From assembly GCF_003334255.1 (NCBI RefSeq), contig NZ_QOWU01000049.1: a DNA stretch of 43,106 nucleotides. One strand, given 5' to 3'. The stretch is from Escherichia coli. Lineage in GTDB: Bacteria > Pseudomonadota > Gammaproteobacteria > Enterobacterales > Enterobacteriaceae. Under the pieces are notes generated by a model, which saw only the letters and a list, made by a program, of their open reading frames with translations, was not told where the DNA came from and did no database searches. The first letter of the stretch is position 1. Each line of letters begins with the position of its first letter. Shown here in pieces: positions 25,546-26,092 of this stretch. A program made the position numbers and the translations under genes.

Positions 25546-25739
25546 TCCTGACTTAATGCCGCAAGTTCGCCAAATCGACCTGGATTAACCTCCGTCCAGG
25601 TTCGATGACCTTCTTAATACTGCTTATCTACCGCCTGATATTGTTCAAAAATAATACTAATCGCAGTTTGTGTTAAAACGGCGGGTTAGCTTTATGAGAT
25701 TATTCTTATCGCCCCTTCAAGAGCTAAGCCACTGAGAGT

Positions 25740-25812
25740 GCCGGAGATAAGCGCCGGATGGGGTAGAAACCCTTAAGCCTGTGTCGCACAGACTTAAGGG
25801 TTTTCTTATTTC
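25740..25812 (+). ncRNA. rydB: Candidate RydB small RNA (position and terminator consistent; exact ends uncertain)
   Basis: Intergenic ydiH-sufA location where K-12 carries rydB; contains a long hairpin cccttaagcctgtg-tcg-cacagacttaaggg followed by TTTTCTTATTTC, i.e. an intrinsic terminator on the plus strand. The RydB sequence itself was not recalled. Confidence 0.5.
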
Positions 25813-26032
25813 TGAACGCTGCACTTTTTTACCTATCTCTTAAATAGTCATTTTCAATACAACTTTTTCTTTTTCATCACAGCCTTAATGCTCCTTAGAT
25901 AATAACCATTATCTAACAATGAGATACCTAATTCTTAGCGTGCCTGTTAACCCACACATCAGGGTCTATGCTTATTAAAAGCAGGCAAAAAGCATGTTTT
26001 ACGGTAAAGCCCCTGCGTTTGCTGGGTTGAAC

Positions 26033-26047
26033 TGATAATCATTATCA
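26033..26047. promoter_or_regulatory. Fur box in the sufA promoter
   Basis: TGATAATCATTATCA is a near-consensus Fur site about 45-60 nt upstream of the sufA ATG; the suf operon is known to be Fur/IscR/OxyR-regulated. Confidence 0.65.
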
Positions 26048-26092
26048 CTAACATGCTGTTATACGCTGAAAGCGATGAAGTGAGGTAAATCG

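Follow-up and report, generated by a model that had tools for sequence, protein, structure and literature searches.

The gap between ydiH and sufA was analyzed in a 43,106-nucleotide stretch of Escherichia coli DNA (contig NZ_QOWU01000049.1), the whole of which is called the window here. An earlier note on this DNA had described the gap as about 550 bp of noncoding sequence that carries a candidate small RNA (sRNA) gene, RydB, and a Fur-regulated suf promoter. The gap measures 547 bp (ydiH stop at 25545, sufA ATG at 26093) and has no plus-strand open reading frame (ORF) of at least 25 amino acids; its two ORFs, of 35 and 31 amino acids, are both on the minus strand. K-12 is numbered on the strand opposite to that of the window, and a K-12 position k corresponds to window position w = 26093 + (1764386 - k). 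A 901-bp query (positions 25300 to 26200) matches E. coli K-12 MG1655 at 100% identity; of 5426 complete E. coli genomes, 5412 contain at least 80% of the query. In NC_000913.3, menI, ydiH (b1685), rydB (b4430, a noncoding RNA gene), and sufA (b1684) follow one another on a single strand, which bears out the assignment of the gap to the K-12 rydB locus. We conclude that the gap very probably consists of two independent, previously described plus-strand units, the rydB gene and the sufABCDSE promoter (Table 1). All proposals of the earlier note are already covered by K-12 annotation, by Rfam, and by published work on suf; the sRNA gene was annotated before, the promoter ranks among the best-studied stress-responsive ones of E. 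coli, and nothing new is added to either.

The Rfam model for rydB, RF00118, matched over its full 61 positions with 81.6 bits, well above the gathering threshold of 50 (E = 6e-18 in the window and 1.3e-19 when the gap was scanned alone). No other Rfam family was found in the gap, even at E <= 1, and across the window, only rydB and RprA exceeded the threshold. The Rfam scan proposed in the earlier note thus supports its RydB candidate. The RNA lies directly 5' of the strong hairpin pointed out in the note, not within it. Its parts are a closing stem, P1 (GCCCC/GGGGU), a small P2, a P3 hairpin, CCGGAGAUAAGCGCCGG, and a 3' tail, AGAAACC. The 68-nt K-12 record of rydB differs from the extent given by Rfam and Term-seq, starting 12 nt upstream and ending 5 nt short; its 5' end falls within a conserved promoter box. 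Compared with RydB of K-12 (b4430; also tpe7 or IS082), the RNA described here has the same sequence, location, and strand and the same full-length model match; there is no biological difference, and the database coordinates alone disagree.

Published 3' ends agree with the Rfam extent. In the part of the Term-seq tables of Adams et al. (2021; PMC7815308) covered here, the sole rydB 3' end is k1764708, equivalent to position 25771, which occurs three times; it is represented by 2.17 and 4.14 million reads, versus 0.18 and 0.08 million for lpp. The mapping was verified by coordinate arithmetic and by the printed 61-nt string, in which the end is position 51, and the lpp row confirms the convention. 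Mature RydB thus ends ...GGGGUAGAAACC-3', the exact extent of the Rfam model with the terminator not included, and the dominant end at 25771 implies an abundant 61-nt RydB that lacks both terminator and U tail. In the same study, 3' ends without terminator or Rho signatures were ascribed to RNase processing (PMC7815308). Salmonella rydB has been tabulated as 105 nt, which is long enough to include the terminator. RydB has been listed among Hfq-independent sRNAs, and its enrichment upon Hfq coimmunoprecipitation in Salmonella was 2.5-fold on just 4 versus 10 reads; the absence of a 3' hairpin and U tail from RydB fits both observations.

The hairpin itself had been noted at 25771 to 25812, a few bases off the true stem and U tract. 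It folds as GAAACCCUUAAG-C-CUGUG-UCG-CACAG-A-CUUAAGGGUUUU, followed by CUUAUUU, with an energy of -21.4 kcal/mol, compared to -7.5 +/- 2.3 in dinucleotide shuffles (z = -5.97), and 0 of 200 shuffled sequences reached this value. A repeat search also returned it as an inverted repeat with 17-nt arms that are 94% complementary. Among 18 orthologues with rydB upstream of sufA, from Escherichia, Citrobacter, and relatives, 6 of the 17 consensus pairs show compensatory double changes; the sequence of the lower stem, CCCTTAAG/CTTAAGGG, hardly varies, and the upper stem and loop are free to vary. A stable stem-loop directly before a U-rich tract is the arrangement of an intrinsic terminator. RNA 3' ends in the U tract (k17646xx) do not appear in the part of the Term-seq tables covered here, which is weak negative evidence, as a short-lived precursor would be under-represented there. 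A simple terminator scan of 25200 to 26300 returned 0 sites and missed the hairpin, probably because the 1x1 internal loop breaks the contiguous-stem rule. The earlier note had described a terminator hairpin at the rydB locus. The hairpin is of the terminator type, but the dominant Term-seq end lies at its 5' foot; most plausibly, then, the hairpin terminates a precursor and does not form the 3' end of mature RydB.

The core alone has an unremarkable folding energy (z = -0.01), and the structural evidence for it is therefore comparative. Species-representative genomes were scanned for the exact 18-mer GCCGGAGATAAGCGCCGG, which was found in at least 120 places; among the matches listed, about 10 are in unrelated phyla, close to the chance estimate of about 9 for 298 Gb. 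In Enterobacterales, the architecture comprises P1, a junction, UU(C/A)(A/C)AGAGCUAA, P2 of variable length, GAG(U/C)GCCGGAGAUAAGCGCCGG, and the 3' strand of P1. In an alignment of 59 sequences, compensatory changes affect each of the five P1 pairs; examples of P1 variants are GCCCC/GGGGC, GCUCC/GGAGU, GUUCC/GGAAC, GUCCC/GGGAC, and AUCCU/AGGAU. The invariance of P3 is uninformative because P3 served as the search pattern. When 18 noncanonical loci were submitted to Rfam, 16 passed the rydB gathering score; the Rfam family therefore already covers them. Among the matches listed, two or three copies per genome are present in Pantoea, Rouxiella, Erwinia, Raoultella, and an Enterobacter species, and adjacency to suf is limited to the Escherichia, Citrobacter, Salmonella, and Silvania group. 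No second family copy was found in E. coli, in which the median is 1 place per genome. Outside the clade of Escherichia, Citrobacter, and Salmonella, the sequence past the core is unrelated and terminators follow at variable distances.

The surroundings of the family members vary. Several Citrobacter loci have about 2 kb extra between ydiH and rydB, and one of them (L035) has about 2 kb between rydB and sufA; the spacing of ydiH, rydB, and sufA is therefore variable. Elsewhere, copies were found, as identified by eye, upstream of osmC-like, pphA-like (GDLHGC), mechanosensitive-channel-like, or accB-like genes. The paralogues linked to osmC and pphA (three loci in Serratia and Rouxiella and seven in Pantoea, Atlantibacter, and others) lie 50 to 220 nt upstream, on the same strand, of genes that by eye look osmC-like (MATIHKYGQAHWEGD...) and pphA/prpA-type (GDLHGC), and two pphA-linked loci have SraC/RyeA-SdsR nearby. 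In six Sodalis-like genomes, a conserved CAGAAAAGCGCATCGGCNACTTACCTCCTCG is located downstream of the family member and its terminator; on the opposite strand, it reads as a strong Shine-Dalgarno sequence and ATG (MRFS...) facing the RNA, with an ORF that is short and variable. A link to mobile elements was considered and rejected: the plasmid matches are Pantoea and Rahnella megaplasmids and chromosome- or megaplasmid-sized E. coli and Klebsiella records, and no family match was found in phages. In the gap itself, a 12-bp hairpin, AUCGACCUGGA...UCCAGGUUCGAU, lies at 25574 to 25606, 29 nt past the ydiH stop and without a clean U tract; it may be a weak terminator or stabilizer of ydiH.

Upstream of the RNA, two elements are conserved. 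A 14-mer, TGAGAnnATTCTTA, stands 15 to 16 nt before the first G of P1 (GCCCC) in 43 unique rydB-proper upstream regions, with counts of T43 G42 A39 G43 A43 n n A42 T43 T40 C38 T35 T37 A34. Read as an extended -10 element, TGnGAnnAT, it would have TG, -11A, -8A, and -7T as its invariant positions and -10 and -9 as its variable ones, and would place the rydB +1 at 25710 or 25711. An alternative -10 hexamer, TATGAG (25693 to 25698), with TGTTAA as the -35 was rejected because its would-be -11 position varies (A, C, T, or G), whereas -11A and -7T of TGnGAnnAT are invariant. The second element, GCAnnnnnnTGTTAAA (25663 to 25678), is found near -41.5; GCA-N6-TGTTAAA occurs at a fixed distance in about 50 rydB-proper loci of many genera and in any genomic context. 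A center near -41.5 is the classic position of a class II activator. We assume that GCAnnnnnnTGTTAAA resembles a marbox or an Lrp site, and that the 14-mer resembles an RcsB box, such as the one we take TGAGACGAATCTGA to be upstream of rprA (20143 to 20156, minus strand). In noncanonical family members, the -35 and -10 hexamers flank a palindrome that resembles an RcsB box, GGAATAATCC or AGATTAATCT. A promoter scan of the region also returned a minus-strand TTAACA-17-TATTTT at 25676 to 25648 and a plus-strand ATCACA-16-GATAAT at 25876 to 25903, the latter not conserved in Citrobacter. In a screening study, a rydB reporter showed RcsB-dependent activation and FNR-dependent repression; another study grouped rydB with CRP-regulated sRNAs, and in a Salmonella study, RydB was among the most ppGpp-repressed sRNAs.

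We propose that TGAGATTAT (25695 to 25703), as an extended -10-like element, and the element near -41.5 would together start transcription at or next to G25711. RNA polymerase would then traverse the 61-nt structured core and terminate at the hairpin and U tract (25766 to 25816), and a nuclease would cut the resulting precursor of about 106 nt at the 5' foot of the hairpin, leaving the abundant 61-nt RydB (25711 to 25771). The hairpin may also shield the downstream suf control region from strong rydB transcription.

The second unit of the gap is the promoter of sufABCDSE. Its core, TTGAAC-16-TAACAT, has both hexamers invariant or nearly so in 13 loci that were aligned from RydB to the sufA ATG. 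By the Kiley-lab numbering of PsufA, the transcription start site would be at about 26061. With a score of 8 of 12, this promoter fell below the threshold of 9 used in the promoter scan and was not called. We take the EcoCyc entry to place the start 32 nt upstream of the ATG, in agreement with a +1 at 26061. Fur sites were judged against TGATAATNATTATCA, a 7-1-7 inverted repeat (for the classic 19-mer, a match of 15 of 19). The Fur box, TGATAATCATTATCA, described as near-consensus in the earlier note, has 0 mismatches to TGATAATNATTATCA and lies between TTGAAC and TAACAT. With up to 2 mismatches, TGATAATNATTATCA has 3 matches in the 43-kb window, versus 0.23 expected. The box is conserved in the orthologues of the 13-locus alignment; Fur repression of this promoter has been published, and the Fur site was mutated experimentally in a PsufA(Fur*) reporter.

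An IscR site had been expected in the region but not located. It can now be pinpointed as a perfect type 2 motif: AWARCCCYTSnGTTTGMnGKKKTKWA matches the window only at 26006 to 26031, even with up to 3 mismatches (0.01 expected). Compared by hand, the same site is a loose fit to the simplified IscR form xxWWWWCCxYAxxxxxxxTRxGGWWWWxx. We take the motif string to denote IscR type 2 and not type 1. With +1 at 26061, -50 is C26011 and -56 to -51 is TAAAGC (26005 to 26010), and both fall on the motif. The string occurs in IscR papers; of the IscR-site mutations published for PsufA, one deletes -56 to -51 and the other replaces the C at -50 with G.

OxyR and IHF sites, expected likewise, can be placed on conserved blocks, but the OxyR match to its consensus is weak, and the borders given for both are putative. 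The best OxyR candidate matches 13 of 20 positions of ATAGnTnnnAnCTAT-N7-ATAGnTnnnAnCTAT (four ATAG-type elements spaced by 10 bp), a score tied with five other sites in the window; no site in the window matches with up to 3 mismatches. Its CTAT-N7-ATAG core is conserved across genera. We assume that the published OxyR footprint, at -236 to -197, lies over this site. For IHF, TAACAATGAGATA matches 7 of the 9 specified positions of WATCAANNNNTTR, and several Citrobacter-clade orthologues (for example, three with AATCAATGCATTG) match WATCAANNNNTTR perfectly at the aligned position. Phylogenetic footprints in the 13 loci coincide with the Fur and IscR sites and the putative OxyR and IHF sites. 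Between the IHF and IscR sites, a further conserved block (AACCC-N7-CAGGGTCTATGCTTATTAAAAG...; near-invariant CAGGGTCTATGCT) is not explained by OxyR, IHF, IscR, or Fur, and no factor is assigned to it in the literature covered. A perfect 9+9 inverted repeat, TTAGATAAT-AACC-ATTATCTAA, at 25895 to 25916 partially overlaps the IHF core; its half sites are Fur-box-like but wrongly spaced, and two of the top-scoring OxyR-consensus positions (25895 and 25902) fall within it.

The arrangement of the Fur and IscR sites and of the probable OxyR and IHF sites is the same as in the known E. coli sufABCDSE promoter (ORE-I, ORE-II, and ORE-III), and no difference from it is expected. According to reviews, Fur represses, apo-IscR activates at ORE-III in competition with Fur, and the far-upstream OxyR site needs an IHF loop or bend to reach the promoter. 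In the window, Fur on the spacer box would repress suf and IscR over the -35 hexamer would activate it, with OxyR bound about 200 to 240 bp upstream and brought to the promoter by an IHF-induced bend.

Table 1. Features of the ydiH-sufA region, in window coordinates
Feature	Position	Strand	Remarks
ydiH coding sequence, 62 amino acids	25357..25545	+	K-12 annotation b1685; upstream boundary of the gap
Conserved upstream element ATCGCAGTTTGTGTTAAAAC	25660..25679	+	Center at about -41.5 relative to the start of RydB; candidate site for an activator
Conserved 14-mer TGAGATTATTCTTA adjoining the start of the RNA	25695..25708	+	Extended -10-like TGnGATTAT at 25695-25703
rydB as annotated in NC_000913.3, b4430, 68 nt	25699..25766	+	K-12 record
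RydB RNA, 61 nt	25711..25771	+	Rfam RF00118 positions 1-61; Term-seq 3' end
ORF of 35 amino acids, GTG start	25717..25824	-	Antisense to rydB
Intrinsic-terminator-type hairpin and U-rich tract UUUUCUUAUUU	25766..25816	+	Stem 25766-25804; U tract to about 25816
Probable OxyR site (ORE-I), CTAT-N7-ATAG-N7-CAAT core	25822..25858	.	Lies in a block whose conservation extends from Escherichia to Citrobacter
Probable IHF core TAACAATGAGATA (within ORE-II)	25914..25926	+	7 of 9 specified positions of WATCAANNNNTTR
Conserved block CTGTTAACCC...CAGGGTCTATGCTTATTAAAAG...CAAAAAG	25944..25993	.	Near-invariant CAGGGTCTATGCT in 13 aligned loci
IscR type 2 site (ORE-III) AAAGCCCCTGCGTTTGCTGGGTTGAA	26006..26031	+	Perfect match to AWARCCCYTSNGTTTGMNGKKKTKWA; overlaps the -35 hexamer
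suf core promoter TTGAAC-16-TAACAT	26027..26054	+	-35 at 26027-26032, -10 at 26049-26054
Fur box TGATAATCATTATCA	26033..26047	.	Perfect 7-1-7 palindrome; fills the 16-bp promoter spacer
sufA coding sequence	26093..26461	+	Shine-Dalgarno GAGG at 26082-26085; ATG at 26093

Several points weigh against the reading of the gap as a rydB gene that yields a 61-nt RNA followed by the suf promoter. The K-12 record begins rydB at 25699 and ends it at 25766. The unremarkable folding energy of the core is accompanied by a minimum-energy fold that lacks P3. The part of the Term-seq tables covered here lists no transcript end past the U tract, and termination at the hairpin is thus putative for E. coli. On the suf side, the OxyR match does not discriminate, and the E. 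coli gap has no perfect IHF consensus. The 3' end is also where an alternative arises, in which functional RydB would span the whole terminated transcript, about 106 nt from 25711 to about 25816, and the 61-nt species would be a stable decay intermediate or library artifact. The length of 105 nt given for Salmonella rydB, the conservation of the lower stem CCCTTAAG/CTTAAGGG in sequence, beyond pairing, and a palindromic-element study that tags rydB with a rho-independent terminator would fit such an RNA. We nevertheless regard it as unlikely. Position 25771 is among the strongest ends in that part of the Term-seq tables, in all three occurrences, with none past the U tract; the Rfam model, derived from conserved sequence, stops exactly there, and the post-core sequence is unrelated outside the clade of Escherichia, Citrobacter, and Salmonella. 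The original Northern estimate of the size of RydB was reportedly about 60 nt.

That RydB is a processed piece of the ydiH 3' untranslated region seems very improbable: RydB follows ydiH on the same strand at a distance of 165 nt, and the hairpin past ydiH lacks a clean U tract, but the promoter-like block is conserved by the RNA in genera without an adjacent ydiH, family members elsewhere have -35/-10 pairs of their own, and about 2 kb separates the two genes in several Citrobacter loci. Slightly less probable again is that the core controls suf in cis, as a leader or riboswitch-like element. Between the core and the suf start site lie a strong terminator and about 290 bp, which include the whole OxyR-IHF-IscR-Fur promoter, and most genera carry the RNA away from suf; these outweigh the highly conserved junction and loop and the position upstream of sufA on the same strand. 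The signal could finally stem from a minus-strand gene for a small protein, as the 35-amino-acid ORF antisense to rydB is present. This we consider extremely unlikely, because its reading frame is not conserved: by hand translation, the frame across the invariant core differs among family members. In addition, the P1 substitutions are compensatory at the RNA level, and the GTG start has no obvious Shine-Dalgarno sequence. We thus favor an independent rydB gene upstream of a separate suf promoter.

As to what RydB does, the literature covered reports that multicopy RydB lowers rpoS expression and that a rydB deletion in uropathogenic E. coli altered persister counts and H2O2 survival. As of 2024, the literature names no RydB target or transcription factor, and we found nothing useful in the literature on RydB together with ProQ, Grad-seq, RNase E, or CsrA. 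More than 20 years after its discovery, RydB thus has no confirmed target, partner, or regulator in the literature. Like the Hfq-dependent sRNAs that retain their terminators, of which RprA is encoded 5.6 kb away, RydB is a stand-alone gene with its own promoter and a terminator-type hairpin. Its effect on rpoS in multicopy is presumably similar to those of other rpoS-directed sRNAs. Unlike them, the abundant RydB species ends before the hairpin, lacks a U tail, and is listed as Hfq independent, and in these respects it does not fit the pattern of an Hfq-dependent base-pairing sRNA. What is conserved in RydB is a compact structured core and not a linear seed. The compact, conserved three-helix core, high abundance, lack of an Hfq-type 3' end, and paralogues lead us to suggest, tentatively and as a possibility that we hold to be doubtful, that RydB may belong to a family of compact structured RNAs that act by binding a protein or ligand and not by seed pairing. 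Such a family would have 1 to 3 copies per genome across Enterobacterales and share a covarying closing stem and about 24 nt of invariant junction and P3 sequence; its 61-nt form would be excised from a terminator-bearing precursor and reach very high levels. Leads on the function of RydB are the 3' end before the terminator, the conservation of its promoter across genera, and the paralogues next to osmC- and pphA-like genes.

Elsewhere in the window, the RprA sRNA gene was found on the minus strand at 20000 to 20107 (Rfam RF00034, 118.5 bits), with a TACTAT -10 hexamer at 20114 to 20119 and the RcsB-box-like TGAGACGAATCTGA at -49 to -36. A Fur-box-like sequence with 1 mismatch, TGATAATAAATATCA, is present at 35740 to 35754 between fumD and ydhY, 248 nt upstream of ydhY. 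Another, TGATTCTTATTATCA, with 2 mismatches, lies at 894 to 908, 28 nt upstream of ydiE, which we take to be a Fur-regulated, hemP-like gene.

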